Below are positions 2,537 to 42,749 of a stretch of DNA of 64,000 nt, in pieces. How positions within the stretch are numbered: the first letter of the stretch is position 1; each line of letters opens with the position of its first letter. The translations under genes and the position numbers were made by a program. The stretch is from sequence record PP261279.1. One strand, 5' to 3'. Below the pieces are notes generated by a model that ran no database searches, was not told the DNA's origin, and saw nothing but the letters and a program-made list of their open reading frames with translations. The DNA is from Escherichia phage ECP2303.

Positions 2537-2585
2537 AATAACTCCAAATAGAAAATCCCCGCCGAAGCGGGGGAGGTCTTAGAAA

Positions 2586-2966
2586 TTAATCGTAGTGTGC
2601 CAAAATCTCTCCATCGTTGCAAGTTCCCTCTACAAAGTTATGAAGATTCATGCACTCATCTTGATAGAAGAATTTACCGCTTTTCAGCCGTAAGCCAAAC
2701 AACTCCGCATCTCCACGATGGCAAGCCTCTACAAGTTCATAGATTTCATACGGCAACTCTCCGTCGTCATGGAAGAACCCAGCCTTATCGTTGACATAGA
2801 TGAAGAAATAATCACTGCTGTCGCAAGCGTCCAATATTTTAAACCAGATTTCATCTACATCTTTTTCTCGGATATCGATCACGCAAGTGGAGCTGCATTC
2901 GTACTCCTTCTCCGGCTCCTCGGTCAATACCACCAGGTAGTTTCCCCGCTTACCTACTTTAGCCAT
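2586..2966 (-). CDS. Hypothetical protein (126 aa)
   Basis: ORF co-oriented with its neighbours and followed on the minus strand by a UUCG-tetraloop terminator at 2557-2574. Confidence 0.55.
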   Translation of the reverse strand: MAKVGKRGNYLVVLTEEPEKEYECSSTCVIDIREKDVDEIWFKILDACDSSDYFFIYVNDKAGFFHDDGELPYEIYELVEACHRGDAELFGLRLKSGKFFYQDECMNLHNFVEGTCNDGEILAHYD

Positions 2967-2975
2967 ACAACCTCC

Positions 2976-19212: not shown

Positions 19213-20958
19213 TTAACGTTGTGCAATTACTACGTCTACGATATCACCAACACCACAATACGTTAATTGCAGCAAGGTAACACTGTTAGCCTTGTTGTTA
19301 ATAACAGGTGTTGCCGACAGGATAGCATACTTATCGTGCAAAGTCACGTTGTGACCTACAGCATCCTGAATTACATAGATAACCGCAGTGAATGGATAAG
19401 GTTTATCTTCCGCTGATGTCCCAGGCCACTGTCCTATTGTAAAATCCCCTTTCGCGTGAACAACATACATACTGGCCTGCCCGTTAGGTGTCCATGTCCC
19501 ACTGGACGCGTCAACCTCCTCTAAATCAAAATCTACCTTTCCTGCGTGGAAAGTAGGGGCAGTAATGGTTTTACCCGCCTCAATTTCTTGAGAGGTGGTT
19601 ATCTTGCCACTGGAGTTAATGCCATTACAGACAAAGTTGACATTAGAGAAGTCAGGCAACCACCCAGTCACCGTGCCGGATATTTCAAGGTTGTGAACAG
19701 AGGTGGTGCCAGTCCCTGCTGCGTTTAAACTGACATCTCCATTTACCTGCAAGTTGCGGGTAACGTTGCAGTTTTCAGAGTTTGCAGTTGTTGCAGTTAA
19801 AGTGGTTGTTGTCAGCTCGGTAATTACACCTTTGTTGGCTGTAAGCCCTTCTCCTTCAAAAGTTGCACGCTCATTGACTCTTAAGGTATTCAGAGCTATG
19901 TTTTGGATAGAGGCCGTACCTCGAATAACTACAGACCCGCCAATCTCCAAATCGCCATTTATCAATGCATCACCAGTGCTTTCAATATAGCTAGGATAGA
20001 TCATGGTGCCATCGACAGAGTATGTTATCCCTGTAACGGTACCTGTCACCTCAAGGTTCTTAACCCTGGTGGTCCCATCGACCTGCAATGTCGGTTCGGT
20101 TGCTGCCTTCATGGCATTACCACGAATGTACACGTAGTCAAAAAAGTTATTACCCAGACCATCAAAATGCACATCGTTATTATTAGCCACTGGTTTCCCA
20201 GAAGTTATAGTGTCAGCTATAACCCTGTGGGTGGACACTTCATGAGGTTGCAGCTCTGTACTTCTCCAGTCTGCATGCTTAGGATCGCTCCACGCAAAAG
20301 TAAGTGTAGAAGTATTTGCCGTGAGGATTAGATTCCTAAAGCGTGCAGTAGAATCTGCCCCATTAACAGGTCCATGTAAGGTAAGGGTGCCACCAACTAT
20401 AGTGTTAGCGAGTTCTGTAAGACCTTTTACCACCAAAGATCCTACAGTAACTTTCATCCCCTCCATGGCTTTAAATATGCTATCAACATAGTCAACAACA
20501 AACTCTGTGTTTGCTATGGACTCTGACTTATCGTCCATTGGAGGTGTAGGTACTCGCGGGTCACCTTCGAACCTTGGGCTGTTAAGTTTTGCGTAGTATT
20601 TTGCCATTACTGCAGAGTCGGTGTATAATCTCCAGTTTGGAGATTGTGAAGGATCTGCTGGCATTCTAACCGGGTTAGATTTTGATGCTGCTGGGGCGTA
20701 CCACCACTGAGTGCCTGTATCCCCTTTAAACTCATACAACTGGTTAAAAACTGTTGTGGATGCACCATACGCCCAAGGGATTGGTGGCGTTTTAAAATAA
20801 AGGGTGTCAAGCATGGCTTTTCGTACCGTAGGGATAGTGGTCCCATCCTCTACGACAACTTCATCCACAGCGTTACCGTTGACAATCAAGTGCAAACGTT
20901 CAGAATCAACAATTACTTGATCTACCGCCTGCTCGAAGCTTGTCATGTCTTGCGCCAT
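19213..20958 (-). CDS. Tail fibre / tailspike-like protein (581 aa)
   Basis: Thr/Asn/Gly-rich repetitive beta-strand composition typical of fibres; located inside the fibre cluster. Confidence 0.6.
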   Translation of the reverse strand: MAQDMTSFEQAVDQVIVDSERLHLIVNGNAVDEVVVEDGTTIPTVRKAMLDTLYFKTPPIPWAYGASTTVFNQLYEFKGDTGTQWWYAPAASKSNPVRMPADPSQSPNWRLYTDSAVMAKYYAKLNSPRFEGDPRVPTPPMDDKSESIANTEFVVDYVDSIFKAMEGMKVTVGSLVVKGLTELANTIVGGTLTLHGPVNGADSTARFRNLILTANTSTLTFAWSDPKHADWRSTELQPHEVSTHRVIADTITSGKPVANNNDVHFDGLGNNFFDYVYIRGNAMKAATEPTLQVDGTTRVKNLEVTGTVTGITYSVDGTMIYPSYIESTGDALINGDLEIGGSVVIRGTASIQNIALNTLRVNERATFEGEGLTANKGVITELTTTTLTATTANSENCNVTRNLQVNGDVSLNAAGTGTTSVHNLEISGTVTGWLPDFSNVNFVCNGINSSGKITTSQEIEAGKTITAPTFHAGKVDFDLEEVDASSGTWTPNGQASMYVVHAKGDFTIGQWPGTSAEDKPYPFTAVIYVIQDAVGHNVTLHDKYAILSATPVINNKANSVTLLQLTYCGVGDIVDVVIAQR

Positions 20959-23303: not shown

Positions 23304-24344
23304 CTATGCATAATTAACAGTGATCCATTGACCGTTTACAAGTTTTTGTAAAGGTCCTGCCCAGTAAGTTGAACCACGCATCTCTTTTTTGTCACCGAAA
23401 TGCCAGCCTGTGACAACGTAGCCGTTGCGGATTGGAGATTCAGAAACGCCGTCCACAAGTCTTGCACCGATTCTGATGTCTTGCACACCTGTCTGCGGGA
23501 TAGTGATCGTTACATCACCGTTACCGTTAGCCGTCACTCCGTTCACAGAGCGAACCACATTTCTGTTACCGACAACACAGTGCTGGCTTCTTACAACCAT
23601 ACTGTCACAACTTGCACCACCATTAACATATACTGACCCAGCCGTCAATTGACTAGCCACATTGCAGTTGGTGAATGTTGCTGTATTACTGATAGTAAGG
23701 TTATTACACCTCATGTTATCGACAACTTCAACATTGCCTACCACTTTCAACAGCGCACGGTTAGCCGTGATCGCGTTAAGGTACATCAAAGTGAACTCTG
23801 GATTAATATCCGGCTGAGTTGGCTGGAATCTCCAACGAAACGCATCTACTGTAGATGTACCGCCATCATCAAACGACCCGGTATTATCACTTAACCCAAA
23901 GTCGAGAGTTGTCTTATCTGGGCCAATAGTCGTCTCTATCCAAGCCTTATCTGTCTCGGCAGCTTTAAAGTTGATACGTTGCAAACCCAAGGGGCCTGTC
24001 ATTGTATCACCTGTAACTTTTACATACCTGGCGTCTGCCTCTTCCTTGGTAATAATCCCAAGGTTTCTACGGGCAACAGGGATGTTCAAAAGATCACTCA
24101 AGTTATTATCACGTACCAGATAACGGCCTTCTTGAGCGGGGATCTGCTCGTCAGCAATATATTTTGCCCAAGTTCCGAGCATATTGAAAATATAGTTAAG
24201 TTCTTCACATGAGGGCTTTTGACCAAGATCCCAACCTTTTCTCCACAAATCATCAATCGGGCGTAGCCTGTTCTGTCTGTGGGTGTTAGGCAGAACCTGA
24301 TCCTCCTCTGCCCAAATCTCTAATGGAAAACTAGGTTTTGACAT
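23304..24344 (-). CDS. Tail fibre protein with P2 gpH-like C-terminal tip (paralogue A)
   Basis: C-terminus ...PLQKLVNGQWITVNYA. Conserved N-terminus (P.EIWA..D.VLPNT...KGWD) and a divergent central region relative to paralogue B. Confidence 0.7.
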   Translation of the reverse strand: MSKPSFPLEIWAEEDQVLPNTHRQNRLRPIDDLWRKGWDLGQKPSCEELNYIFNMLGTWAKYIADEQIPAQEGRYLVRDNNLSDLLNIPVARRNLGIITKEEADARYVKVTGDTMTGPLGLQRINFKAAETDKAWIETTIGPDKTTLDFGLSDNTGSFDDGGTSTVDAFRWRFQPTQPDINPEFTLMYLNAITANRALLKVVGNVEVVDNMRCNNLTISNTATFTNCNVASQLTAGSVYVNGGASCDSMVVRSQHCVVGNRNVVRSVNGVTANGNGDVTITIPQTGVQDIRIGARLVDGVSESPIRNGYVVTGWHFGDKKEMRGSTYWAGPLQKLVNGQWITVNYA

Positions 24345-24356
24345 TTTATCTCCTGA

Positions 24357-26429
24357 TTATGAGAAGTCTGGCGGGACAACATCTTCTACATACCCTTTCA
24401 GAGCAACCTGCCCCATATGAAGCACGGTAGAATCTCTAGCGGTAACAGTGATGCTGTCAGACATTACTTGCGGGTATGCCCACACATACTGTTTTACCTC
24501 AGGGTATCTATACTCTATAGTTGCCATGTTTCCGCAAATACATCTCCATAAAAATTCTTGGTAATTCCTAGTTGGGTCATAGCCATATACCGGAGCAAGC
24601 TCTTTACTAGGAACGAACCCTGCAAGGTATTGTATTTCAGACGGTTGCCAACCTAACCTAACGATAGGTATGTTTACAGACTCTTTTGCCTTTTCAATAC
24701 CTCCCTGCATCACCCAATCGTAGCACTCGGTGCAGAAGAAATCAAGAGCACCTGCTTCCTTTTTATATTGGTCAGCAAGGTTCAGCTTTTGTGTAAGCTC
24801 GGTTTCCATAATGGTTGGGAAAAACAGCAAAGCTGTCATCTGAGCTGATGCAGCGTGTGCCTTTACTGCCTTTGAAATAGCCGCAATACGAGCGCCAAGC
24901 TTACCACGACAAAATGCCACATACTTGTCGTAAACACCGCCAGTTTTAGGATCGTCAATAGTCCCAATATCTAATGCATACTCACCTGTCTCATCATAAA
25001 ACGCCTGCTTTGTAGGGTAATCATAAATACAAGGCCTACGAGTATCGGTATTGTACCACCACCACGGTTCACCAACCTGCATAATCACTGGCAGGTTGTT
25101 TCTCATAGCGGCTGATGCAAAATTCTTAAATACTGCAGTAAGGAAATTCATACCCTCTTCAATGGTTGGAGATAGGAGGTAGCTACAAGGTGTATACCCT
25201 GTTTTAGCGTAGTTATCGTTCCAGTCTCTTTGGGTCCATTCCAACGGGCAGGCATCGCTGAAAAGCTCAAAACTTACAGATTGCATAACGTCGAAGTTAT
25301 GTCGTTTGGCATTGTACATAAAATCATCATGCCATTTATAAGCTGCAGCGTTTAGCGCTCCTGTTCTGTTTATAGACCATTGGGTTCCGGACCATGTGTA
25401 GTCATAATAATGACTCATACCAACATAATGGTTTATGGTTCCGGTATATCCCAGACGCTTGATATTGTTCAACACCCTTAAAGGAGAGACGTTCCACATA
25501 TCGTCATATGCGGTGCAGATCCCAACGTCGTGCTCTCTCACCTGAATATTATTAAGTTGCATCATTTTCCAGCCTGTGTCTGGCTGAAGCAAATCTAGGC
25601 GCAACTCACACTCTACATTTTCCGTTCTCGGGTCTGTGCTATTACTTACCCAGTCTTTAGGCATGAGTGGTATTAAAATCCTTCTCACCTGCCGAGGATC
25701 AACACCCATCATGTTGTTGTTCTGGTCCATCCCGACGCAGTCCTCGAAATCAATATGAATTTCTGCAACATTCTTATCCTCTGAGATGCTGACAGCATAT
25801 TGAGCTAAAGGAACATAGATGATTGTGCCATCAACAAGGTCTACAGTCATAATCATCTTTTCAGGAGTGGAGAAGTTGCTGGCGTTGGTTATTGACATTC
25901 TGAACCAAAGTTTGGTGTTTCTCATCTCATAGTGATCATCAAACCCAATACCGAAATGGTCATACTTGTCAACTGTTTCCCAAATGCATCCAGCCATACC
26001 CCCATATGTTCTTGACACTAAACGGTTAATACAACAGTTGTTATCTGCAACAATACAGGTACTTTCAGTCTGCTGAGTAGTTGTAACCCAATATCTTGGG
26101 TGGAACATTCTCTCCTCGACAGTATCCCAAGATATCCTGTCAAGATTCTCATCTGAAACTATTGTACATTTCGCCCTTTGTGTCCCGATCATCACCCCTT
26201 GAGATTTTGATGAAAACTCCATAAAGAAGCTTCTTGGCAACCTGTTGGGTAATTTGTCAACAATTTCCACCGGAATCTCAATACTGGTTGCCCCGACTGG
26301 GATAGTTACATCGCCCTCAACATGATCATAATCCCTACCAGGAACGGCAGTATCCTGAACTGTGCGGTAATGAAACTGCGCAGCCATTGTAGAGTAATCA
26401 CGGTAAGGTTTAAAAACAGCTGTTGCCAT
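24357..26429 (-). CDS. Structural protein with N-terminal Calx-beta-like motif; possible fibre proximal part or carbohydrate-active domain
   Basis: Calx-beta-like motif near the N-terminus (VPGRDYDHVEGDVTIPVGATSIEIPVEIVD). Trp/Tyr-rich C-terminal domain. Position is equivalent to the proximal part of an H-like fibre. Confidence 0.55.
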   Translation of the reverse strand: MATAVFKPYRDYSTMAAQFHYRTVQDTAVPGRDYDHVEGDVTIPVGATSIEIPVEIVDKLPNRLPRSFFMEFSSKSQGVMIGTQRAKCTIVSDENLDRISWDTVEERMFHPRYWVTTTQQTESTCIVADNNCCINRLVSRTYGGMAGCIWETVDKYDHFGIGFDDHYEMRNTKLWFRMSITNASNFSTPEKMIMTVDLVDGTIIYVPLAQYAVSISEDKNVAEIHIDFEDCVGMDQNNNMMGVDPRQVRRILIPLMPKDWVSNSTDPRTENVECELRLDLLQPDTGWKMMQLNNIQVREHDVGICTAYDDMWNVSPLRVLNNIKRLGYTGTINHYVGMSHYYDYTWSGTQWSINRTGALNAAAYKWHDDFMYNAKRHNFDVMQSVSFELFSDACPLEWTQRDWNDNYAKTGYTPCSYLLSPTIEEGMNFLTAVFKNFASAAMRNNLPVIMQVGEPWWWYNTDTRRPCIYDYPTKQAFYDETGEYALDIGTIDDPKTGGVYDKYVAFCRGKLGARIAAISKAVKAHAASAQMTALLFFPTIMETELTQKLNLADQYKKEAGALDFFCTECYDWVMQGGIEKAKESVNIPIVRLGWQPSEIQYLAGFVPSKELAPVYGYDPTRNYQEFLWRCICGNMATIEYRYPEVKQYVWAYPQVMSDSITVTARDSTVLHMGQVALKGYVEDVVPPDFS

Positions 26430-28722: not shown

Positions 28723-31700
28723 TTAGTCGTGAGACTCGTTCCAAGGTCCTTGGAAACTAGAGTTAGAACGGCTTACCACAACAGTAGGACAGGATATTGC
28801 GACCCCTGTTACAGAAGACGTTGACCATGGTGTGTAGATTTCAACAACAATATCTATGGTTTGTTCACCAAGACCCGTTATCCCTACTGCACACATACCG
28901 TTGTTGTCGTTTCCGTACTTCTTACCTGCAAGGATTTGATGTCCGGCTATCCAAACGTTAAGCTGGGAGCCAGACAAGGTTCCGTTTAGTTTAAAGAAGA
29001 ATGTTACGTTCTTACCTTGTCCTGAAACGTTGTCCACATATCTCCACCTCCAACGGCAAACCCTCTGCTGTGAGTTATATACTGGAGGACAGTCACCGTA
29101 GGTTCTGTGTGCAACTATTGCACCTTCGAACTGGTTAGCACGGATAACAGAAGCTTCTACACGCCCACGAAAGGTACCTCCGGTTGCATCTATGGTGCCC
29201 CTAAAGCTACCATTATTGGCATAAACATCCCCACGGAAGGTACCACTAGTGGCGTTAACTGCCCCTGTGAAGTTACCAGAACTGGCGTTGATGTTGCCTT
29301 TCACCCACACATCCATAAATTGGGCGTGCCCGTTCTTGTTAATATACCAACCGTATTTATGGTACCCGTTGCCATCGTAGTTGTTTGACGAAATTTCTTG
29401 TGCGATCTTGGCAGATGAAATCGTCCCGTTCTCTATAAAAGCATCTTTCAAGAACGCTTGGTTGTTCTTGATTGCGAAAGCAAGGGTTGCTGTTCCATTT
29501 CCAGGGTTGTATACCGCAAAATTGTTTGCACTAACCATGAAGTAGGATTGAACTTGGCCTCCAGACCCTTCCATCCCCAACTGGATACCTGCAACATATT
29601 TATTCCCTGCGGAGTCTACCTGTATTTTTGTGCCCCATTGAGCATTTACTTTACCCTCTAAGTCGGTTACAGCCTTAGATGTTGTAGCTACTGCAGCCCT
29701 GATCTCGGACACATCCCCAACATCATCAATGATCTCCTGCTTAGCAACAGCAAGTTCTTGACGAATAGCTGACGCTGTGCCGTTGATAAGGTCCACAGTA
29801 GCTTTGTTGGTATCGGAAATTGTAGCATCCAGCGCTGTTTTTGTGGAAGTCAGTTTTCCATCCAAAGCATCAATCGCCTGCTTGTTGGTAGAAATCTCCC
29901 CACGTGCAGAAGTTATCTGCTCTGACAGTGCAGATGTTTTCTGATTCAACAAGTCAGTGGTGGCCTTGTTGGTATTGGCAATCAAGGTGTTGAGGTCAGT
30001 TTTTGCGGTGGTTATCTTGCCATCCAGGGTGGTATAGTTTTTAGATACCGTCGCGTTTGTCTGACTGATCTTTTGATCCAGAGTTTCAGATGTCCTGTTC
30101 AAAAGATCCACAGTTGCCTGGTTAGTGCTCAAGATGCTTGCGTCAAGTTCTGTTCTCTGAGTATTGATCTTACCATCCAGAGTTTTATCTCCGGCTAAAT
30201 ACCCGCTCTCAACTCCCTCTATCTGCTCTACCAGCTCACCTTTGGCGGCAACCAATTTCTCATCTAAAGCCTCTGTCTTTTTGTTCAGAAGATCAGTAGT
30301 TGCTTTATTGGTTGTCTCGATCAGAGATGCCAGTCTGCCACTTTCAGTGTTCAGATCGTTGGTGAATTTGTTCTGTGCAGCAACAAGTTTCCTATCCAGC
30401 GCTGTAATGTTACCATTGACATCTTCAAACTTCTGAGTTGTTTCTGTAACTACCGCACCTATTCTGTCCCCAAGTTGTTGGAACGCTTCATCTACCCTAC
30501 CATCCATGTACCTGTTAAGTTCTGTGACACGATTTTCAACCTCTTCAATAGAGGAATCCAAAGTGCTCATCAACTCTTTATAAGTTTCTGTCTTTTTGAA
30601 TTCAGCATCTATCTGAGGCATCAAATCCTCAATAGAGGTATAGCAGCGTGCAGCGCATTCTACAAACTGAGAGCTACCAAAAGCGTTTGTGGTTCGAATA
30701 TACCAATAATAAACCTTATCGTTCTGCAGACCTTCAGATGTCCAAGTCGAACCAACACCCATACGGGTGGCTTCTGAAGTAACGGTTGCATCACTAGTGT
30801 CTGGCAACCTTGTCATACCAGATGTCCAAAAGTCATACTGGGTGCTTACACTTGCTAAATCCCTGCTGTGTGGAATCAAGGTGATAGCAAAGTATCCTTG
30901 CTTAACCTCTACAGAAACAGGAGCTTCAGGTGCCTGAATGTTAAACTCGCAGTACGCTTCTGGAGATACACCACCTTTATAAGATGTTGCAACCACGGTT
31001 GCTGTGTATGACCCTTTGGTCAAGCCTTCTACTCTGACAAACTGCTCAACTGTCTGTGCTGTCCAAACAATCTCTCCGTTCTTTCTTACCTGCACAATAT
31101 TTTGAGCGTAAGTTCCAACGTTGTCCCAAGCCAAAACACCGTGAGTTACTTCCCCAGCTTGGAGAACGGAGTATCTGAAGTTTTGCGGTTGAGCTACACC
31201 GGATGGGGATATCGGAATATCTACATCGCCGGAATCCGGAAGTTGCCCTGTGGCATCATTCCACTCTTTAGCATCTTGACGAAGTTTTACCTTGACACCG
31301 CCCTTTTTGGTGAACTCCCATTCAAGAACCCTCATTTCTTGGCCCACTATACCAATACTTGGGAGATTCATTGTAACGTAACGGCCAGGTTTAAATTTAA
31401 AACCTCGCATATTGCAGGTGACTTCAATAATCCTGCCAGCTCTAGCACGTCTTAAAAATATTGCAGAAACACGCTGAGCTTGATAAGGGCTGGTAACAAA
31501 GCGGTAGTCTATATCGATTATCTTTCTTTCTCCATCCTTCTCTATCCACTCTGGGACAAACACTGATGGAAAATCTGTTTCAGAATACCCTTTGGTCGGA
31601 CTGGTGAATCTGCCAGTTATTGTGTTGGATCTTTTGTCAAACGAGGCTTCCGGATAGATCTTAACCTCACCACAGACACAGTCCTCACTCAGTGTCATTG

Positions 31701-32562
31701 TTGCCGGACCATAATATGCACCTACCAGCAGTCCATACTTACCAGCTACATAGCTGAGATCTGCACCACAAGCTTTCAGCATTTCTGCCATAATACTTGC
31801 TGGGGCCTCATCCATATCGAACTCGCCATTAATGGTGTAACGGCGCTCACTAGTTCCGTCCGCGTTTCTTACCGCCTCATCGCATATGTTAGCAGCCTCC
31901 TTGAAGGACTCCCAGTTGATGGTTTCGTCAGGACATTTAAGGTACGTTCTTAAATAGTCTAGAATCACCAAGGCCGCGTTATTGGTATACACCTCTTTAC
32001 TGATACGAGGATCATAGCATTTTTTACCAACCTTGACGAGTGTAACGTTTGGCAACCCAAAAGGGAACTTGTTAGGGTCAAACCTGAAGCTGGCACGTAG
32101 CCAACTGATCCCTCTACCTATCATGTCTGGTGACCACGACGGGCAGTGTGTACCCATGAAAGGATCAGATGTTTTTCTGTCGTTATGTAGCTCCCACGAT
32201 ATCAAATCTCCATACGAGGAAATAGGATTACCGTCGATGAGTATATCTTCTATACCTTCCAGGGGATGATTGGCAAGAACAATAGCACAATGGAGGGTCC
32301 TGTCCCTGTCCTGCTCCAAAAACGCAAGTAATCCAGATGTGCGTGTCTTCCCATACACTACAGAGCAAGGTGCAGCAGAAGATCTGAGAAGCTTTTGTCT
32401 ATCTTGCTGACTTCTGTAAGATTTGTTGCCCTCAAAAATCTTATCCAGAGTTCTGGTGGTAACAGTGTTCAGGCTGTCAGCCAGAGCTGCCTTGGATGCG
32501 TTCCAGTCATAACTTGAAGATCTTGCAGAAGCAACGATGTTATCAATCATTGCAATTGGCAT
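28723..32562 (-). CDS. Lambda gpJ-like host-specificity / central tail fibre protein with internal coiled-coil repeats
   Basis: 1279 aa. Segments align with lambda J as recalled from memory: EFNIQAPEAPVSVEVKQGYFAITLIPHS, YYWYIRTTNAFGSSQFVECAARC, and a C-terminal NASSGNFTGAVNATSGTFRGDV region. An insert of four approximately 50-aa repeats (TNKATTDLLN...) lies between them. Confidence 0.75.
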   Translation of the reverse strand: MPIAMIDNIVASARSSSYDWNASKAALADSLNTVTTRTLDKIFEGNKSYRSQQDRQKLLRSSAAPCSVVYGKTRTSGLLAFLEQDRDRTLHCAIVLANHPLEGIEDILIDGNPISSYGDLISWELHNDRKTSDPFMGTHCPSWSPDMIGRGISWLRASFRFDPNKFPFGLPNVTLVKVGKKCYDPRISKEVYTNNAALVILDYLRTYLKCPDETINWESFKEAANICDEAVRNADGTSERRYTINGEFDMDEAPASIMAEMLKACGADLSYVAGKYGLLVGAYYGPATMTLSEDCVCGEVKIYPEASFDKRSNTITGRFTSPTKGYSETDFPSVFVPEWIEKDGERKIIDIDYRFVTSPYQAQRVSAIFLRRARAGRIIEVTCNMRGFKFKPGRYVTMNLPSIGIVGQEMRVLEWEFTKKGGVKVKLRQDAKEWNDATGQLPDSGDVDIPISPSGVAQPQNFRYSVLQAGEVTHGVLAWDNVGTYAQNIVQVRKNGEIVWTAQTVEQFVRVEGLTKGSYTATVVATSYKGGVSPEAYCEFNIQAPEAPVSVEVKQGYFAITLIPHSRDLASVSTQYDFWTSGMTRLPDTSDATVTSEATRMGVGSTWTSEGLQNDKVYYWYIRTTNAFGSSQFVECAARCYTSIEDLMPQIDAEFKKTETYKELMSTLDSSIEEVENRVTELNRYMDGRVDEAFQQLGDRIGAVVTETTQKFEDVNGNITALDRKLVAAQNKFTNDLNTESGRLASLIETTNKATTDLLNKKTEALDEKLVAAKGELVEQIEGVESGYLAGDKTLDGKINTQRTELDASILSTNQATVDLLNRTSETLDQKISQTNATVSKNYTTLDGKITTAKTDLNTLIANTNKATTDLLNQKTSALSEQITSARGEISTNKQAIDALDGKLTSTKTALDATISDTNKATVDLINGTASAIRQELAVAKQEIIDDVGDVSEIRAAVATTSKAVTDLEGKVNAQWGTKIQVDSAGNKYVAGIQLGMEGSGGQVQSYFMVSANNFAVYNPGNGTATLAFAIKNNQAFLKDAFIENGTISSAKIAQEISSNNYDGNGYHKYGWYINKNGHAQFMDVWVKGNINASSGNFTGAVNATSGTFRGDVYANNGSFRGTIDATGGTFRGRVEASVIRANQFEGAIVAHRTYGDCPPVYNSQQRVCRWRWRYVDNVSGQGKNVTFFFKLNGTLSGSQLNVWIAGHQILAGKKYGNDNNGMCAVGITGLGEQTIDIVVEIYTPWSTSSVTGVAISCPTVVVSRSNSSFQGPWNESHD

Positions 32563-34229: not shown

Positions 34230-37200
34230 TTACTTCAATTTCTCTTGCAATCCAGTAACAACCTCTGTCAATTTTTTAACCTGCTCCTCAAGGGCGGTTA
34301 TTTTATCGTCCTGTTCCCTGCAAACCTGGACAAGCAAGCCTGTTACAGCTGCGTAGTCAACGTTATAGAACCTTTCCTCAGTCATTAAAGGAATGCCGTC
34401 TTGAGTAGGACCTTCTATTTCCTTCCTTTTCACGAAAGATCCTACTGCCTCTGGCAATGCTTCCATAACCTCTTGAGCAATCACGCCTGCATAAGGCATA
34501 CCATTCTCTTTCAAGGTGTAGGTATAGCCTTTCATCTTTCTAATTGCTTCCAGAGCGTTAGGTATGACCTCTATGTTATCCTTCAGGTCCCTATCGGAAC
34601 TTTGACTAACAGTAGTACATTCTACCGTGCCGTTGACAGCAAAATATCTTGATTTAGCCTCATCTGCCTTAGCACCACAGTGGAATACCCAGCTGGCGAC
34701 TGTTGAGTTATCACTTATCTGAAACTCCAGCACATTCTTCCTATCTGCGCCATTACCCCAATAGTACAACCTACCTGTATTAGAAGGCATGTTGGAAGTG
34801 TTGGTAACATCCGCACCACCACCTGTGTGTATTGTGAACTCCGGTTCAAGATTGGATCCTTGAGTTTTTAAAGTGATACCTTTACCACCAAGCTGCTGCC
34901 AATGGCCCCATGTGAAAACACCACCTATCGTTGTTCCATAACGCAGGAATTTTTCTCCAAGATATGTCGTATATTCCTGTACGCAACTCTCTGGAACGTT
35001 GGCATAGTTTCTGTAGACAACGAGAGTACCTGCCTGGGAGCATGGGTAGTTTTTATCAAGTGCGGCCTGAGCATTAGCCTCCTGATGATAAAAACCCTCT
35101 CTATCCCCTTTGTAGTCGTTAAGGTCATTAGTCCCCAGCCCTTGACCACGGTGCTGAATAACTTTGTTCCATGCCCTATGGTTACCACCCTCGATAGATC
35201 TGGTGTATAGCTGATCAAGGCGACCAGCCATTTGGAAGGCATAGTTTCCAGAAAACGCCACAGACAGCCCACCAACAACCATCGAACCTTCAGGTCCGTT
35301 GACATTGCCTGCCATTATTTTAGAAGGGTTGTTAGGACCAAACTGGTTGTTCCAGTCTGCACCAGTATGGCATACAAAACCACCTGGAGCTGAGAAAGTA
35401 CCATCCTTGTTGAAGTTGTAGAATCTATGAGCTGTGCCTACAACATCGCGAACAATAACTTGACCAGCTTCCGGAGTAGATCTGAACTCTGCCTGGCCTT
35501 TGAGACCAGCACCATTACCGCATTTAGAGGTAAACGTACCGTTAGTCAGATCCTCTGTCCCATCAGATGCACACTGGAATCCTGCATTAGAGAATAACGC
35601 CTTTCTAGGACTGCCGTAGCACAAATAGTCAAGACCGTCTGCCCATAGCTCGACTTTTGGCATATTCATTTTGCTCATCACAGCATAGCGTTCAGCAGTG
35701 CCTATATAGTGCCACTGTGTGCCGCCGCCAGTGTAGAACCCTGAAGTACCTTTAAAATCAACAATAGGTCTGGTATTGGTGTTGTTATCTCCAAGAATGG
35801 CAAGATTCAAATCTGCTGACTGAAGAGGTGCAACGAACTTAACCCCATCCTGATTGTCTGTTACAGAGCCAACCTGGTAATCTTGCTCTCTGGTAAACAC
35901 TTCGACAACATTTCTACTTGCGTATATGCTGACAGGGAAAGCACGAGCCTCTACATAGAAAGCAACATACTCTTGTTTACCCCTTGTTGGAGCAACCATC
36001 CCAAGAAGTGCTTTTTCATTCTGGTAGAAATTTACTACCCCGTAGAAAGCGTCCCCTCTGTCTGTCCAACCACCAGTTCTATAGTGACACTGTAAGGTAG
36101 CACAGTTCATAGGGTCACCGCCGGATGACGATCTGGTAACTATGGTAATATCAGTGCCAGTTGCTGGAGCATAGTACGGATCTGTTCTAACGATAATTGG
36201 GTAGTATTTCCCATCTTCCATCCCTGCGGTTCTTGGCAGTGTTAAGAAGTCTTTTACACCTGCTGCTATAGGAACTTTGAACAGATTCTGAGCATCTGCT
36301 AAAGTTGTGGCTCCAGTACCACCTGCGGCGTGAGGTAAAGGTTCCCACTTGGCCTTCCGGTTGTTATAAACACCCCATTCCAAACTGCCGTTACCGGATT
36401 CGTCCATCCCGCCATCCCAGATAACCATCTTGGCGGCTTTCTTGGACCCCCAAAAGCCTCTTTCTGCTCCTGAACTACGGATCCACTCCCCAAGTCCCCA
36501 GTTTGTCAGCTGACCAGTAAGATCCCCAACCTGCATATATTTAGGACAGTCTAATACACCGTCCTCGCGGAAACCTAAATATCTATGAGTTTCAGATCCT
36601 TTTGCACCTTTGTGGAGGTGGATTGTCAACCAAGCCTTATTGTCGTTTCTTACCTCAGAATAGATCCTATAACCATGCTCAAGAATACCATCAGTATTAT
36701 ATTTATCTCCATGGAGAATACCTGAGGCCGATTTAACATCTCCAGAGTATTGAGCTAAGTAAAGGTGCCCGAAGGCTGGCGAGTTGTTTTTACCAAGGCC
36801 GATATGAGATCTGAAAGTATCATCGTTACGAGGTCTGACCATCGGCTGCCATGCAGTCCACTGGTTTGTGTTGGCCTGATAGGTTCTCAAATACCAAACA
36901 TCTACGTTAGAAAATGGATAGTATTCCTGACGACAACCTGTACCGCCGTTAGCATTGTTCTGCCAAACAATCAAGTGACCAGCACCAGAACCTGCAGGGT
37001 AACCATTTGCCTCAGTTGCATAAGCAGTCATCGGCTGGTAGTATACGCCATCCTGATTACCAGTCAAGTTATTGATATTGAAATTTGGCTCAAGGGCTGC
37101 ACGTTGCTTATAGAAAGCACCGATATTGATACGGACTCCAGCGGCATCTCTAGCCCCTGTGCCGCCTTGCTCTATAGCAAGAGGTTGCCACGAAGCTGTT

Positions 37201-38030
37201 TGTTGGTTCCACATACCCCAACGGCCTGTTGCATCAAGCTGCAAGTACCCTGCCGTATTTAAATCATCTCCAGCACGGATAACTGTTCTTGTTGGGTTGT
37301 TTGCCTCTAGGCGTTTAAATTCATCACGAAGTGCTATTCTTTTCGTTGTTGCTACACCGTTGGTTACTGCAATGGTGTACATGGCTCCGGTGGTAGCGCC
37401 ACGGAAAATACCATCAACAGTTGTAGTATCACGACGAGATACCACACCGTTCAGAAATTTTTCACCAGCTGCTACAGAAGGGTAGTTGGTAGTTCTTCCC
37501 TCTTCAATAACTGCAGGGCCAACAAAGTTATCGAGGTGAATAACATCGCCTACAGTGTGCACTGTACCAAAATCTACACGCTGTGCAAGTGCTTTGGCAT
37601 CGTTAGCTGTCTGAACAGTAACATCCATTACATCCTGGACAGACTGCCCTTCGGCTGTCATGATCATAGATGCGCCAATGGTAGATTCCAGCTCCTCCCT
37701 TAATGACGGATCTGTATATACCATCCATGCAGCGTCAGTAATCCCACCATCGGAGTACGGTGAAGACAGTGCAGGAACAGTGTGTGGAAATTCGCCTTTC
37801 CAACGTAGGTAGAGGTCTTCCTCTTCGAAGTAGGCAAAATCCATTGGGCCGTTTAACTTACCACCTTCCTTAAAGGAGATTACATGAGAAACAGTCCCAT
37901 CAACATGGACAACATCGCCAATTTTTACACGACGGGTCAGGTCTGGTTGTTGAACAACCAGGTAATCATCCTCTGTCACTGCGGTAGTGGCAGGAAGAGA
38001 TTCAATTCTGACAACTTTAATATCAGCCAT
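34230..38030 (-). CDS. Tail fibre / tailspike with C-terminal intramolecular chaperone (peptidase S74) domain
   Basis: 1266 aa. C-terminus (SDRDLKDNIEVIPNALEAIRKMKGYTYTLKE...GVIAQEVMEALPEAV...YNVDYAAVTGLLVQ...ALEEQVKKL) matches the self-cleaving chaperone domain of endosialidase-type fibres. N-terminal domain is shared with the 222-aa ORF at 40665. Confidence 0.8.
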   Translation of the reverse strand: MADIKVVRIESLPATTAVTEDDYLVVQQPDLTRRVKIGDVVHVDGTVSHVISFKEGGKLNGPMDFAYFEEEDLYLRWKGEFPHTVPALSSPYSDGGITDAAWMVYTDPSLREELESTIGASMIMTAEGQSVQDVMDVTVQTANDAKALAQRVDFGTVHTVGDVIHLDNFVGPAVIEEGRTTNYPSVAAGEKFLNGVVSRRDTTTVDGIFRGATTGAMYTIAVTNGVATTKRIALRDEFKRLEANNPTRTVIRAGDDLNTAGYLQLDATGRWGMWNQQTASWQPLAIEQGGTGARDAAGVRINIGAFYKQRAALEPNFNINNLTGNQDGVYYQPMTAYATEANGYPAGSGAGHLIVWQNNANGGTGCRQEYYPFSNVDVWYLRTYQANTNQWTAWQPMVRPRNDDTFRSHIGLGKNNSPAFGHLYLAQYSGDVKSASGILHGDKYNTDGILEHGYRIYSEVRNDNKAWLTIHLHKGAKGSETHRYLGFREDGVLDCPKYMQVGDLTGQLTNWGLGEWIRSSGAERGFWGSKKAAKMVIWDGGMDESGNGSLEWGVYNNRKAKWEPLPHAAGGTGATTLADAQNLFKVPIAAGVKDFLTLPRTAGMEDGKYYPIIVRTDPYYAPATGTDITIVTRSSSGGDPMNCATLQCHYRTGGWTDRGDAFYGVVNFYQNEKALLGMVAPTRGKQEYVAFYVEARAFPVSIYASRNVVEVFTREQDYQVGSVTDNQDGVKFVAPLQSADLNLAILGDNNTNTRPIVDFKGTSGFYTGGGTQWHYIGTAERYAVMSKMNMPKVELWADGLDYLCYGSPRKALFSNAGFQCASDGTEDLTNGTFTSKCGNGAGLKGQAEFRSTPEAGQVIVRDVVGTAHRFYNFNKDGTFSAPGGFVCHTGADWNNQFGPNNPSKIMAGNVNGPEGSMVVGGLSVAFSGNYAFQMAGRLDQLYTRSIEGGNHRAWNKVIQHRGQGLGTNDLNDYKGDREGFYHQEANAQAALDKNYPCSQAGTLVVYRNYANVPESCVQEYTTYLGEKFLRYGTTIGGVFTWGHWQQLGGKGITLKTQGSNLEPEFTIHTGGGADVTNTSNMPSNTGRLYYWGNGADRKNVLEFQISDNSTVASWVFHCGAKADEAKSRYFAVNGTVECTTVSQSSDRDLKDNIEVIPNALEAIRKMKGYTYTLKENGMPYAGVIAQEVMEALPEAVGSFVKRKEIEGPTQDGIPLMTEERFYNVDYAAVTGLLVQVCREQDDKITALEEQVKKLTEVVTGLQEKLK

Positions 38031-38065
38031 TCTTTCTCCTGAAAGGGGGCAAACAGCCCCCTATG

Positions 38066-40663
38066 TTAAAGGTACAATCCACGGTATTGAGCATAGAGGC
38101 CCAGACCGCGAAGGATTTCGCCAGAGTGATAGCCTACCGGATCAGAAACTGCCCAGCAGCCGTTTAAAACATTATCCCCATTAATGAAGTGGTGCTTTTG
38201 CAGTAGCTTCACACAGGCTTCTACAACAATGTCTATTTGAGGTATTGTCTCTGAATACCCACACAGACCTAGCCAGCAGCAACCTGCAAGCCATTCACCT
38301 ACCACCCACATCCTGTCTCCTCTGTCTTGATAAGAATATCCCCCAGAGGTGTTAAAGTCTGTAGGCAGATTTCCTGAATGAGATGACTGGAATCTGTTGA
38401 GGAACCATGCCCATTTCTGGCAGAACAGGAATAGTCTTTCATCAACAGGTTCTTTATGTTTCTTGAGCTCATATATTGTGCGGCACGCAGCAACAAAAGA
38501 TCTTGACTGGAGCTTAGAGTTATCTACCATCTCCCACCAACCAGTCAACCCTTCATTACCTCTTTGCCATACATAACGTGAGGCAACTGGACCCTCTGTC
38601 TTAAATGTATTATTATACCAGACTTGAGCGTCATACAGAAAGCCTATTGTATTTGACAATCTATGGCGATCTATGTTTTCTGCACCCATACAGTAGACTG
38701 CTGGGTATTGCATGCCAGGGTAGGGCCAATTTGGCCTTTCCTCTAAGAGATAGTTTTCCTTATCTATCACCTTTCCGGCAGGGAACACCCCTGGCGTGTG
38801 CCTGTATGCACCTTGCTTGTAGTTTCTGACATAGCAATCGCCAACCTTAGCGGTTGATTCTGTCTTGCTTGCCATCCATACGCTAAACCAGATTAGATAA
38901 GCATCCCTGTCTGCAATATAGAATTGCGGCAGCGTGTTGACGCAGTACAGATCAAACAAGCCATTACCTATCTGCCTGTCGCTTAGGCTGAAATCTACAG
39001 AGGTGAGCCCCTTAGGATTAGCAAAGAAAGGTTTAATCTCTTCTTCGGTGTGATGAGGTTGTGTCGGATCTAGTTTGAAATCTCCTAGAGTAAGAGTTTC
39101 TGTTATCCATTGTCCATTAGTGGCATATAGATCAGCATACCATAACCACCTGTCTTTGTCAAGAAATTTGACCCTTACCATCTCATCATCTGATCGATAA
39201 GTTACTGAGTTTAAAGAAATCTCTCTTCCAAAATTGAAAGTTACTTTACCTCTTGCTATATTACAACGGGTGAAGTTGTCAGAGTGGTTGTAAATGTCGG
39301 TATCATACTGCATACCAACACCAGCACCACCGCTTACGGCAATGTTTTCCTCTTTAGGTAAGAGATACGGATTACCGTCTTTACCAACCACCTCTACGAA
39401 ATCAGTAACCTTGGCAACTATTTCTGTTACCTCTGCACCTCCAAAAGGGACACCTATCCTGTACTGTTTTTTGTTATTGTTACCATCATTAAGGATGAAA
39501 TGCGGCTGGAACAGAACACCTTCTCCTCCGAAATTCATAACAATTTCAGCATCTCTACCTATTTTGTATGTAGTCCCTTTTTGAATTATTTCGCAAGGCT
39601 GGCGTGCGTTCATTCTAAAATTGATATACCCGTCACTGTCCCTGCTCATGACAGGAACTGTTCCTGCAACAAGACAAGCACCATCTGTGAACGGTGCCTT
39701 AATCAACGTGGTCTTTCTAAACAGCTTGTCGTAGGCGTTTATATCACTGAAATTAAGCAACTTGTTGTAAGACTGTTTAAACGCGGTGTAATACTTTTCC
39801 TCACCTGTCAAGGTGTAGAGTTGATAACAAGCGTCACACCACATTTCTTCCCCGTCCAACTCCGGGGCCTGATTATCTGCAACCACGTTTATAGGATTTA
39901 CAATTACAGGGGATCCTGCAGGTATCACCGATCCACCCTGCTCTTGAGGTAATCTTACACAATAGGTCACCTTGTGGCTGCCTGTAACACCCTTATCTTG
40001 TAATTGGATTGTGCCGAACTCTACAGATGTATGACCACTGTCGGCTATGCTACCGTTAGCCCAATAGCGGTTACCATCCCATGCTATATACCACTCAACC
40101 CACCAACTTAATCCGGATGTTGTCCAATCCGGGTTAGCATCTGTGCCGCCGTAAACATCAGAGTCTACAGTGTTTCTTCCTAACACACCGTTATACGCTT
40201 GGAATGCCTTGTCCAGGTATTCCCCCCATGTCGGAGATCCAGCTGGGATTTTTCCTCTACCATTGGTAAAAGACACCACCACATCTTTAAACCCACCATG
40301 TGATGGAACCCCGTCTGTGGATAGAGGGTAGTGGGACAATCTTTGCATTTTACTTTCTACAGCATATGCACCCAGAAGATGACTATTGTAAGCTTCCCAA
40401 GCATCTTTTGCCCTATCCAGATAGAAATCGCTTTTCGATGCCCTATATGCTTCAATGTATCCCAGAATCAACACAGCTTGGGACTCATGCATTGCCCAAT
40501 CATTATTTATCTTATTACCTGCCCACCCTGCAGCTATAAGACCATCAGGGTTTACTAGCTTATTTTGTGTAGGGGTGTTGGTAATACCTGTGTTGTTATC
40601 GAGGCACTTCCTGTGCCCCTCAATCATCTGAAATACGTTATCAATGTTGTGTTGAATACGCAT
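38066..40663 (-). CDS. Tailspike enzymatic module (putative glycosidase/depolymerase-like, 865 aa)
   Basis: Trp/Tyr/Asp-rich composition. Starts 1 nt after the stop of the 222-aa anchor ORF (TAAGATG) with AGGAG upstream. No fibre N-terminal domain of its own. Confidence 0.55.
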   Translation of the reverse strand: MRIQHNIDNVFQMIEGHRKCLDNNTGITNTPTQNKLVNPDGLIAAGWAGNKINNDWAMHESQAVLILGYIEAYRASKSDFYLDRAKDAWEAYNSHLLGAYAVESKMQRLSHYPLSTDGVPSHGGFKDVVVSFTNGRGKIPAGSPTWGEYLDKAFQAYNGVLGRNTVDSDVYGGTDANPDWTTSGLSWWVEWYIAWDGNRYWANGSIADSGHTSVEFGTIQLQDKGVTGSHKVTYCVRLPQEQGGSVIPAGSPVIVNPINVVADNQAPELDGEEMWCDACYQLYTLTGEEKYYTAFKQSYNKLLNFSDINAYDKLFRKTTLIKAPFTDGACLVAGTVPVMSRDSDGYINFRMNARQPCEIIQKGTTYKIGRDAEIVMNFGGEGVLFQPHFILNDGNNNKKQYRIGVPFGGAEVTEIVAKVTDFVEVVGKDGNPYLLPKEENIAVSGGAGVGMQYDTDIYNHSDNFTRCNIARGKVTFNFGREISLNSVTYRSDDEMVRVKFLDKDRWLWYADLYATNGQWITETLTLGDFKLDPTQPHHTEEEIKPFFANPKGLTSVDFSLSDRQIGNGLFDLYCVNTLPQFYIADRDAYLIWFSVWMASKTESTAKVGDCYVRNYKQGAYRHTPGVFPAGKVIDKENYLLEERPNWPYPGMQYPAVYCMGAENIDRHRLSNTIGFLYDAQVWYNNTFKTEGPVASRYVWQRGNEGLTGWWEMVDNSKLQSRSFVAACRTIYELKKHKEPVDERLFLFCQKWAWFLNRFQSSHSGNLPTDFNTSGGYSYQDRGDRMWVVGEWLAGCCWLGLCGYSETIPQIDIVVEACVKLLQKHHFINGDNVLNGCWAVSDPVGYHSGEILRGLGLYAQYRGLYL

Positions 40664-40664
40664 C

Positions 40665-41333
40665 TTAGATAGCTCCTGCGATAATCAGTGCCCCGTACCA
40701 AGTTAACCCGTTGTCGTAGGTTTCCAACTTGAAAATATCTGTTGCACCAGCTGTAAATGTTAGGATAGGATCTCTTCCGTAGGACCATTTAACATTGTCA
40801 GGCCAATAGACTTTGTTGCCGCCAGAGGTCTGAGTAATGCATACGGTTATAGTTCTCGCCACCCCTTCAAGACCTTCTGTTTGATTTTCAAAAGAGATTG
40901 TGGTATTTGAAGTTAGTCGAACTTTAAAGGTATCCGCAACTTCAAGATCCATATCAAGCTGACCACCGATAGATCCGTAATCAACTATTCTGCCATAAGA
41001 AGTTGCAGCAAGCTCACCAAAAACAGACCATGCATTTGCAGACACACCCCCAGCACCCTCTACAGTGGAGTCTGGGAGGATTATTTTAGGATAATCCCCG
41101 TTCCACGTGTAGTAGCGCTTAGTCTCTGGGTCATAAGCAAAGTCCTTCTTGCTCTTAAGATAGCCACCCTCTGTGAAATAGACTATCTTAGTAATGCTAA
41201 GATCGTTGACAACATCGTCAATCTTAGCCTTTCTTGTCCCATCAGTCTGGTTGACAACCAAGAAGTCATCACTCAGGACTGTTTCTGCATCTTCAAGATC
41301 TGGAATTGGTATTGTAGGATAAGCTACAGCCAT
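40665..41333 (-). CDS. Tail fibre N-terminal anchor/adaptor domain protein (222 aa)
   Basis: N-terminus is homologous to the N-terminus of the 1266-aa fibre (DD.LVV.Q.D.TR.KI.DVV...F.EGG.L...DFAY). Confidence 0.6.
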   Translation of the reverse strand: MAVAYPTIPIPDLEDAETVLSDDFLVVNQTDGTRKAKIDDVVNDLSITKIVYFTEGGYLKSKKDFAYDPETKRYYTWNGDYPKIILPDSTVEGAGGVSANAWSVFGELAATSYGRIVDYGSIGGQLDMDLEVADTFKVRLTSNTTISFENQTEGLEGVARTITVCITQTSGGNKVYWPDNVKWSYGRDPILTFTAGATDIFKLETYDNGLTWYGALIIAGAI

Positions 41334-41342
41334 GATTTCTCC

Positions 41343-42059
41343 TTAGTTAACATCAATAGCACGACCAGACTGGTTGGCAATGGCCTCATCATTGGAGGTA
41401 GCAATAACACCAGAGTATTCGCGCTCATCTGGAGCAAGCGTCCAGGTATTGCGGTTAATGGTTTGTTCTGCCTCAGTCATCAGCAGATCTTTATCCTGAG
41501 TCAACAGAGAGCCTACAGGGATCGGGTTTTCCATCTCAGGACCAGCATACTGGTTCCACCATGTGGCATCTCCGGTTCTAGGCAATCTGAAGTTGATCAG
41601 ATAGTACAGTTTATTAGCCCACTTAATCCAACCCTCATCATCACAGAGAGAGGTTGTCCCAGAATCAGGCTGTGGGTAGGTGAACTGATCAAGACCTACG
41701 AAAGCCAGCCTTACAATCTCGTTCTCTTTGGTAACAACCTCAAAGAACGCTTGGTATGTTCTCGATCTTCGATCCATGGTAGACTGGAAGTTTATGATGT
41801 TTAGCACATCCGGCTCTTGTCTTGCCACTTCCATAATCTTGTTATCAAGAACAGTCTTCATGACCTTCTTACTGAGAAAGTCCATATAAGGGAAGCCAAA
41901 CAACTCGTCAAAGTACCAGCTCCCCTTCCACGTATTAAACCTCATCCACAAGCGCTGGCGCAGACTTACTTGGTTTGAATCTATCAACTCAAGACCTTTG
42001 TCTATCGCCAAATCGCCTGTCTGTGGGTCCATCAATATATCACTATAAAGCGTAGCCAT
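41343..42059 (-). CDS. Baseplate protein (238 aa)
   Basis: Lies between the spike gene and the fibre genes; function from position only. Confidence 0.45.
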   Translation of the reverse strand: MATLYSDILMDPQTGDLAIDKGLELIDSNQVSLRQRLWMRFNTWKGSWYFDELFGFPYMDFLSKKVMKTVLDNKIMEVARQEPDVLNIINFQSTMDRRSRTYQAFFEVVTKENEIVRLAFVGLDQFTYPQPDSGTTSLCDDEGWIKWANKLYYLINFRLPRTGDATWWNQYAGPEMENPIPVGSLLTQDKDLLMTEAEQTINRNTWTLAPDEREYSGVIATSNDEAIANQSGRAIDVN

Positions 42060-42071: not shown

Positions 42072-42749
42072 TTAGTGCGGTCCACTTGTCTCGCCATCAG
42101 GGCAAGAGTGGGTATGACCTTTATATTCTGCATAGAATGAATCCAAATCCACACCAGCAGCAGTTATAATTCTACCAGATGGGTCTATTGTGGCACCATT
42201 CATTCTGATATTTCCATCCACAGCAGCTCGCAAATTGGCAGCCCCGTTAGTGAAAGAAAACTCCCCGCTACTGTCGCACCGTAATGTCCCACCAGGTGTT
42301 TGAAGCTCAAAATCGCCAGAAGGTGTCAGTTTAAAATAAACCATATCATTCCATAACTCTACGTTATCAGGATCGATCTGTAAAGCGTTTGAGTCTGAAT
42401 GAACAGAGGTGATTGCCCACCCTGGAAACAGGCCGTGAGTTTGTTGATCGTCGTTATTGTTTTCATTTCTCTCTGAAAACTGCAATCCTACAACATCCCC
42501 AGCCTTAATAGGAAGTGTTAACCTTGCCTTTCCGCTGTTTGCAGACATCACCTGAATTGGAACGTCATAGATAAGAGGGTATCTCTCCACATCCCCGTCA
42601 TCAAACGTGGTTTCAGCTATTGGCTGCACGGCTGCAGAAGGTATACTGTAGTCAACACTGACAACTCTGGCCCTGATACTGGTGTGATAGTCCCTCATTA
42701 TTTTTTCTATAAAGGATCTTACAGCAGCATCTTTCCTATTTATTGCCAT
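42072..42749 (-). CDS. Baseplate central spike (P2 gpV-like)
   Basis: 225 aa. C-terminal apex motif GHTHSCPDGETSGPH (His-x-His) as in gpV-type spikes; located in the hub region downstream of the tape measure. Confidence 0.6.
   Translation of the reverse strand: MAINRKDAAVRSFIEKIMRDYHTSIRARVVSVDYSIPSAAVQPIAETTFDDGDVERYPLIYDVPIQVMSANSGKARLTLPIKAGDVVGLQFSERNENNNDDQQTHGLFPGWAITSVHSDSNALQIDPDNVELWNDMVYFKLTPSGDFELQTPGGTLRCDSSGEFSFTNGAANLRAAVDGNIRMNGATIDPSGRIITAAGVDLDSFYAEYKGHTHSCPDGETSGPH

Follow-up and report, generated by a model that had tools for sequence, protein, structure and literature searches.

The 64,000 nucleotides (nt) of Escherichia phage ECP2303 studied here (sequence record PP261279.1; "the window" below) contain, between positions 34,230 and 41,333, three minus-strand open reading frames (ORFs) encoding proteins of 222, 865 and 1266 amino acids (aa), which by sequence are gp43, gp42 and gp41 of phage rV5. 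We propose that gp43 and gp42 are two separately translated subunits of one rV5-like host-recognition appendage, and we estimate the probability of this reading at about 0.6. Because the pair recurs with unchanged layout in many unrelated phages, it is most likely an old two-subunit device and not a broken gene.

The region from 38000 to 41400 was 100% identical to Escherichia phage ECP2309 and 90-99% identical to 117 more records, rV5 included, and nucleotide identity to rV5-like genomes was 98-100%. This places the phage, a myovirus of about 137 kb that resembles rV5, in Vequintavirus. The locus itself is ordinary for Vequintavirus and its genes are already known: mass spectrometry of rV5 virions had found all of gp41, gp42 and gp43 (PMC3606486). 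The annotation of the BASEL phage EduardKellenberger places the trio downstream of the baseplate hub, the central spike and a 'baseplate protein'; the 222-aa member is labelled 'sialidase domain protein', the 865-aa one 'lateral tail fiber protein with glycosidase domains', and the counterpart of about 1270 aa 'lateral tail fiber protein'. What our analysis adds is a pair that appears ancient and portable, with interchangeable anchors, and that is a candidate for the densities left without an assignment in baseplates of the phi92 type; of the readings considered, the one with two subunits has the best support.

The distribution of the two genes was analyzed with tblastn in 50,697 phage records. 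The 865-aa gp42 matched 532 places in 524 records, including phi92 gp141, phAPEC8, PVP-SE1/GAP31, the Asteriusvirus and Seoulvirus jumbo phages, Rosemountvirus, Kolesnikvirus of Erwinia, myoviruses of Vibrio, a Klebsiella siphovirus and a T7-like podovirus of Aeromonas. When the C-terminal domain of gp43 (called small-C here) was used alone, it likewise matched 532 places in 524 records. The counts for small-C and gp42 were 239 versus 242 records in Escherichia, 101 versus 101 in Salmonella, 33 versus 33 in Erwinia, 12 versus 12 in Cronobacter, 7 versus 7 in Aeromonas and 6 versus 6 in Klebsiella. A small gene of 156-325 aa was located directly upstream of the gp42 homologue in 9 of 9 curated loci from myoviruses, siphoviruses and podoviruses. 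Scanning of IMG/VR with an alignment of the large protein gave 71 loci, 66 of them with usable upstream DNA, and in all 66 the ORF directly upstream ended in small-C at its extreme C-terminus. Overall, the pairing was observed in 75 of 75 loci from three morphotypes, and by these counts small-C and gp42 are effectively inseparable.

The small proteins of the curated loci were alike in their last ~100 residues only. Invariant residues of small-C were L140, Q168, G171, N173, W183, L191, D199, D207, G209, W212 and G214 (gp43 numbering). Profile searches of small-C against Pfam and PDB sequences gave no match, except for a marginal BNR/Asp-box hit that came from the motif T-x-D-x-G-x-T-W. This Asp-box motif probably explains the label 'sialidase domain protein', and it is not evidence of sialidase activity.

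These results were also considered under the assumption that the two proteins are independent appendages, in which case gp43 would be a complete short fibre with an Asp-box receptor knob, gp42 would be attached otherwise, and their adjacency would reflect co-regulation. In fibre-like proteins as long as 563 aa, small-C occupies the distal tip, the usual place of receptor-binding knobs; the BASEL annotators chose a sialidase label, and the interaction of gp43 with gp42 rests on genomic linkage. However, adjacency in 75 of 75 loci from three morphotypes together with matching record counts would be difficult to account for if there were no functional dependence, gp42 homologues never came with a recognisable anchor, and the pair replaces a single fibre gene in a T7-like genome. 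We therefore regard independent attachment of the two proteins as quite unlikely.

The N-termini of the small proteins were lineage-specific and, where recognisable, were known virion-attachment modules. Tail_spike_N was found in rV5-like phages and in the IMG/VR locus L017. The small protein of the Klebsiella siphovirus KLB24 has a lambda-type phage_tail_N (Stf-N) domain, and the pair is inserted between the tail-tip genes I and J. That of the T7-like Aeromonas podovirus Atoyac23 has a Phage_T7_tail domain, and the pair fills the only fibre slot, with internal virion protein D on one side and the holin on the other; given this sole tail-fibre slot, it is not evident how else the large protein would reach the virion. 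A P2-type Phage_tail_fib (collar-N) domain was found in locus L057 and SPRY domains in loci L069 and L074, and the commonest IMG/VR form, a 563-aa partner, carries a major-tail-protein-like domain (phrog_158, E=2e-21). In the large family, by contrast, almost every full-length member starts at residues 1-15 and is without an anchor, and full-length homologues align from residue 1. A preliminary description of this DNA had stated that the 865-aa protein has no attachment domain of its own, and indeed none was recognisable.

Taken more generally, small-C and gp42 could be a portable cassette, in which a docking domain and an anchor-less six-hairpin glycanase are mounted on at least six unrelated attachment modules in myo-, sipho- and podoviruses of Proteobacteria; we hold this broader proposal tentatively, at slightly less than even odds. 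The six modules are the baseplate spike anchor, the lambda side-fibre N-terminus, the T7 fibre N-terminus, the P2-type collar N-terminus, a tail-tube paralogue and SPRY fibres.

Two further genomic contexts were noticed. The IMG/VR contigs of 20-40 kb with a 563-aa partner (L019-L066) also encode a normal 167-aa major tail protein after the large gene (for example, 1313-3004 and 5850-6353 in L033), which hints that in these siphovirus-like elements the enzyme decorates the tail tube or neck. In Rosemountvirus, the pair adjoins head-tail connector genes.

The junction of the two genes in the window reads GCA GGA GCT ATC TAA G ATG. A single nucleotide (G) separates the stop from the start, as the preliminary description had also stated, and a Shine-Dalgarno sequence, AGGAG, is located 9 nt before the gp42 ATG within the last adaptor codons (A-G-A-I). 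With stop and start so close, a large ORF without an anchor, and N-terminal extensions of ~270 aa in a few distant homologues, the pair could be taken for one anchored tailspike gene that was recently split, that contains a sequencing frameshift, or that is subject to programmed recoding. However, the same two-ORF layout was present in 118 independently sequenced related genomes, in IMG/VR relatives whose large protein is just 56% identical (L015-L018), and in every distant lineage. Junctions were tight in 21 of 21 loci examined, ranging from an overlap of a few nt to a distance of about 12 nt, but the relative frame varied by lineage: TAATG overlaps, +1 junctions of the TAAGATG type, TAATATG, in-frame TAAATG or TAAGCCATG, and ATGA-type overlaps were all found. 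No conserved frame relation or frameshift geometry was detected across the 21 loci, and each large ORF had its own start codon, in several cases with a Shine-Dalgarno sequence, as is the case in the window, where an ATG and an AGGAG belong to the large ORF itself. The small protein also closes with its own conserved domain; gp43 belongs over its full length to a separate family, phrog_7760, and several other PHROGs of small 'tail fiber' proteins have C-termini that match its C-terminal half. The preliminary description had offered a two-subunit tailspike or a recent split or recoding as its two options. The first is the one best supported by the recurring pair, and the second is effectively refuted by the comparison of genomes and frames.

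The GCAGGAG that precedes the stop encodes the residues A-G of the small protein and at the same time contains the Shine-Dalgarno sequence of the gp42 gene. It was also found in phi92, L015, L017, L010 and L067, and this superimposed signal is conserved in rV5-like, phi92-like, GAP31-like and Asteriusvirus loci.

The N-terminal extensions mentioned above were found in three of 91 cluster representatives (P0029, P0040 and P0037). Each extension of ~270 aa contains a weak small-C-like motif before the large domain (hhalign E of about 0.04-0.06; hidden Markov model (HMM) domain E of 0.045), and these proteins may be natural fusions of the small and the large protein. A separate metagenomic protein of 293 aa, P0068, matches the N-terminus of the large protein at residues 18-195 and then small-C strongly at 187-287 (E=2e-26). 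In the normal gene pair the two elements come in the opposite order, and P0068 may be the product of recombination, an assembly error or a genuine permuted fusion.

We then consider what kind of protein gp42 is. It gave no match in Pfam, NCBIfam or PDB sequences. An AlphaFold2 model was built from a six-sequence alignment (the homologue search gave 6 relatives of gp42 and 4 of gp43 for the model alignments), with a mean predicted local distance difference test (pLDDT) score of 65 and a predicted template modelling (pTM) score of 0.49; the helices were mostly at 75-92. Helix pairs were placed at aa 2-97, 269-306 and 663-861, and beta regions at 108-247 and 330-616 interrupt them. In this model gp42 is an (alpha/alpha)6 six-hairpin barrel with beta insertions, and we regard the predicted fold class as established. 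A profile of 27 sequences of the gp42 family gave weak hits among PDB sequences to GH76 of the glycoside hydrolases (GHs; E=3e-4), to cellobiose 2-epimerases and to a 'six-hairpin glycosidase', all via a hairpin-helix motif, and Pfam gave sub-threshold hits to GH76, GH47 and GH127 in 1-2 of the 27 members. Foldseek against BFVD found the same fold in phage 'tail fiber' proteins of a Klebsiella phage and Alteromonas phage R8W at 11-15% identity. Compared with known six-hairpin enzymes (GH48, GH8, GH9, GH76, GH88/105 and AGE epimerases), gp42 is 9-13% identical without reaching any threshold, and its barrel is broken by beta insertions of ~140 aa and ~290 aa. The suggestion of the preliminary description that the 865-aa protein is a glycosidase or depolymerase was thus borne out by structure prediction as far as a glycosidase-like six-hairpin fold is concerned, and not by the HMM searches, in which no Pfam, NCBIfam or CAZy-type family was reached. 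An active site of the GH8/GH48 type (clan GH-M) had been guessed from TTEGQ and ASDAE.W, and was dropped after the profile searches gave GH76 and epimerase hairpins, not GH8.

Among family members that share ~25% identity, E60, D270 and E849 were conserved to at least 90% and were located at helix N-termini of the model, and D502 in the beta region was invariant; an active site in gp42 is plausible. The phi92 homologue gp141 has been listed as a glycosidase, which is an in-silico label (PMC5380687), and ORF17 of S144 has been described as 'hydrolase by HHpred, not spike-like'. It is unlikely, in our judgement, that gp42 is mainly a structural or lectin-like dead six-hairpin scaffold, such as the arm of the L-shaped fibre of phi92, on which other fibres would dock; gp43 would still carry it. 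The identity of gp42 among Vequintavirus, which was at least 99% in 86 records and 95-99% in 33, fits a scaffold as well as an enzyme for a conserved glycan. In contrast, the acidic residues at the helix N-termini are conserved among distant members as an active site would be, and the hydrolase predictions for the S144 and phi92 homologues were made independently with HHpred-type methods. In comparison, the identity of gp41 was 80-99% across about 120 Vequintavirus records (tblastn), with allelic variation. Since gp42 is near-invariant and gp41 far more variable, the sequences suggest that gp41 tracks variable O-antigens, while the role of gp42 is structural or is directed at a conserved glycan.

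Part of the inserted beta-sandwich of gp42 (aa ~482-580, 38924-39220 in the window) matches phrog_23426. In loci of the Erwinia Kolesnikvirus type, a tail-fibre gene of ~500 aa located two genes upstream of the cassette (696-2228 in L072 and 722-2230 in L078) matches HMM positions ~470-654. The fibre gene thus has a second copy of the beta-sandwich, which makes the domain inserted in gp42 a mobile module in its own right.

A gene that directly follows a fibre-like gene with tight coupling is also what is expected of a fibre chaperone, and in PMC10579305 a fibre with its cognate cap is described as common to distant phage families. On this precedent, gp42 would serve the upstream protein as a chaperone of assembly or as a transient cap, like P2 gpG, Mu gpU, T4 gp38 or the Alteromonas 'chaperone caps'. 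We consider this very unlikely, because proteins of 865-1150 aa with a glycosidase fold are unlike known fibre chaperones, gp42 is retained in rV5 virions (PMC3606486), and a partner as small as 156 aa leaves little to fold. T2-type gp37-gp38, P2 H-G and Mu S-U are similar to the pair in that the gene directly downstream of a fibre encodes a proposed tip protein, but there is no relation in sequence or fold, and the present partner is enzyme-like and exceeds theirs in size 5-10 times.

The attachment domain of gp43 was compared with the N-terminus of the gp41 fibre, for which the preliminary description had claimed homology over the first ~100 residues. BLASTP aligned residues 8-105 of gp43 with residues 7-105 of gp41 (99 aa) at 38% identity and E=4e-18, which is far beyond chance. 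Both proteins scored above the Pfam gathering threshold of Tail_spike_N (PF18668; 25 bits), with 41 bits for aa 51-105 of gp43 and 40.9 bits for aa 46-103 of gp41, and gp41 also has a Peptidase_S74 domain at 55.5 bits (threshold 22 bits). Among the remaining ORFs of the window with 60 aa or more, none has the anchor. PDB sequences matched by the gp43 anchor were the tailspike N-termini 9occ, 8x8m, 5w6f and 4oj5, and an HHpred match of rV5 gp43 to the P22 tailspike N-terminus has been reported (PMC3606486). The N-terminus of gp41 also matched phi92 gp140 (E=7e-7) and phi92 gp143 (E=1e-4). In phi92, gp140 retains the N-terminal peptide of ~40 aa but is without the Tail_spike_N sandwich, and the endosialidase gp143 has the same peptide as gp140, which parallels the paralogy of gp43 and gp41.

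Other relatives of gp41 point to exchange of anchor and shaft across families, as judged from sequence. Its residues ~170-1261 shared 34-37% identity with the long, L-shaped tail fibres that T5-like siphoviruses carry. Enterobacter phages of ~150 kb encode a 'colanic acid degradation protein' whose N-terminus is 35% identical to the gp41 anchor (aa 1-134).

From these results, we infer the following arrangement for the two-subunit appendage. The N-terminal peptide of gp43 and its Tail_spike_N domain of the P22/TSP1 type would fix this adaptor either to the periphery of the baseplate or to another fibre, and the domain of ~100 aa at its C-terminus would hold the anchor-less gp42. Coupling of stop, one nucleotide and start, with the internal ribosome-binding site, would deliver gp43 and gp42 together. 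gp42 would then probably bind, and perhaps cleave, a conserved envelope glycan. gp41 would probably dock to an equivalent type of site, because its anchor is paralogous to that of gp43.

Several points weigh against this arrangement. Adjacency and co-occurrence would also be seen with co-regulated proteins that are attached separately, and the contact between gp43 and gp42 is deduced from them. The confidence of the gp42 model is moderate, and the AlphaFold2 model of gp43, built from an alignment of 4 close sequences, had a pLDDT of 32. The catalytic residues of gp42 are guesses, the protein reaches the threshold of no enzyme family, and its identity of at least 95% in 119 Vequintavirus records is equally compatible with a scaffold. 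The E values of the putative natural fusions are weak.

The closest known systems are rV5 gp43/gp42/gp41 and phi92 gp140/gp141/gp143, both from the 'Swiss-army-knife' adsorption apparatus of Vequintavirus and Justusliebigvirus, which are direct orthologues in the same gene order. The order is sheath initiator, small protein, large protein, and S74 fibre or endosialidase here, in rV5 and in phi92. Published descriptions of rV5 and phi92 give separate 'tail fibre' or 'tail protein' entries, not one unit. A 2026 cryo-electron microscopy (cryo-EM) study of phi92 (PMC13450770) identified fibre III as gp147 and fibre I as gp143, located at the tip of an L-shaped arm; no assignment was made for fibre II or for the fibre I arm, gp140 was named as a candidate, and gp141 was not mentioned. 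phi92 gp142 is a deacetylase fibre of the NGR/ECA type, and in the BASEL paper it is said to be unclear which genes form which fibres.

The pair can also be compared with adaptor systems of other phages. gp43 carries a virion-binding domain and gp42 is without one, as in an adaptor system, and docking of the two rests on linkage. In K1-5, K1E and SP6, the adaptor gp37 carries anchor-less tailspikes. These phages share with the present pair a small protein with a virion-binding N-terminus and an anchor-less enzymatic subunit, and the Aeromonas podovirus version of the pair likewise uses a T7-fibre N-terminal domain. They differ in that the dock here is an Asp-box C-terminal domain of ~100 aa without a Pfam or PDB match, in that the enzyme is an (alpha/alpha)6 barrel and not a trimeric beta-helix or an endosialidase, and in that each adaptor has one partner and not two. 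CBA120 TSP1-4 and G7C gp66-gp63.1 are similar in that Tail_spike_N was defined on TSP1 and Gp66, that PDB matches included CBA120 TSP3 and TSP4 (5w6f, 5w6h) and G7C-type fibres (4qnl), and that several receptor-binding proteins are joined via modular N-terminal domains. Docking in CBA120 and G7C occurs via T4 gp10-like XD domains, and no such domain was detected here. Every subunit is a tailspike in those phages, whereas the anchor-bearing subunit here is without an enzymatic domain.

The coordinates of the locus and of the other fibre and spike genes of the window are given in Table 1. The other fibre and spike genes named in the preliminary description were all present as ORFs, and the set agrees with the published descriptions of rV5 and of the BASEL phages. 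An ORF of 225 aa for the central spike (42072-42749) matched Pfam PF18352, which we take from its context to be the phi92 central spike's N-terminal domain. In addition, ~18-25 GenBank records of 'Campylobacter phage' (MG0656xx; host C. jejuni) were 98% identical to the E. coli rV5-like phages here, and are probably mislabelled or contaminated and not true Campylobacter phages.

Table 1. Features of the gp43/gp42/gp41 locus and other fibre and spike genes of the window.
Feature	Position	Strand	Basis
gp43-like adaptor, 222 aa	40665..41333	-	PHROG 7760, E=5e-119 over 1-221 of the 223-position profile
gp43 N-terminal peptide of ~45 aa, IPIPDLEDAETVLSDDFLVVNQTDGTRKAKIDDV, common to gp41, phi92 gp140 and phi92 gp143	41199..41333	-	
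gp43 Tail_spike_N domain (TSP1/Gp66-type, P22-head-binding-like), aa 51-105	41019..41183	-	Pfam PF18668, E=2e-10
gp43 C-terminal putative partner domain (small-C), aa ~115-222, Asp-box-like motif TYDNGLTWYG	40668..40991	-	alignments
AGGAG ribosome-binding site of the 865-aa gene	40673..40677	-	read from sequence
gp43 stop TAA; spacer G; gp42 ATG	40665-40667; 40664; 40661-40663	-	read from sequence
gp42-like large subunit, 865 aa, without anchor	38066..40663	-	phrog_2871, full-length match, E=0
gp42 beta-sandwich region, aa ~330-616, inserted in the barrel	38816..39676	-	model secondary structure
gp41-like lateral fibre, 1266 aa	34230..38030	-	anchor, shaft and S74 chaperone
gp41 paralogous anchor, aa 1-105	37716-38030	-	BLASTP against gp43; Pfam
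gp41 Peptidase_S74 (PF13884) intramolecular chaperone, aa 1145-1196	34443-34598	-	Pfam
Sheath-initiator/baseplate protein, phi92 gp139 homologue, directly upstream of the adaptor	41343..42059	-	phrog_4233, phrog_120
1878-aa protein	13528-19164		ORF list
581-aa protein	19213-20958		ORF list
Two paralogous short fibres, ~347 aa	21246-22292, 23304-24344		ORF list
690-aa fibre, rV5 gp34/phi92 gp142 equivalent	24357-26429		NGR/ECA deacetylase type according to literature
J-like protein, 1279 aa, Phage_Tail_Tip and Ig_J domains	28723-32562		Pfam

In the literature searched, no earlier description of an adaptor-plus-six-hairpin cassette as such was found, though one may exist, and its general occurrence seems not to have been described so far. 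Phages of the rV5 and phi92 types are valued for their broad host range. If the broader cassette proposal is true, gp140-gp141 would be the missing component of fibre II or of the fibre I arm in phi92-type baseplates, and gp43/gp42 (phi92 gp140/gp141), taken as one unit, would be a concrete candidate for those cryo-EM densities. The cassette would mean that an (alpha/alpha)6 enzyme can serve as the receptor-binding or depolymerase module instead of the usual beta-helix, and that a conserved domain of small size may be a universal dock. In annotation, hundreds of labels such as 'hypothetical', 'tail protein' and 'sialidase domain' could be corrected, and depolymerase discovery tools, now trained on beta-helices, could make use of the family. 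If true, the pair would also provide a ready-made 'dock and enzyme' set for phage retargeting and for modular engineering of receptor-binding proteins.

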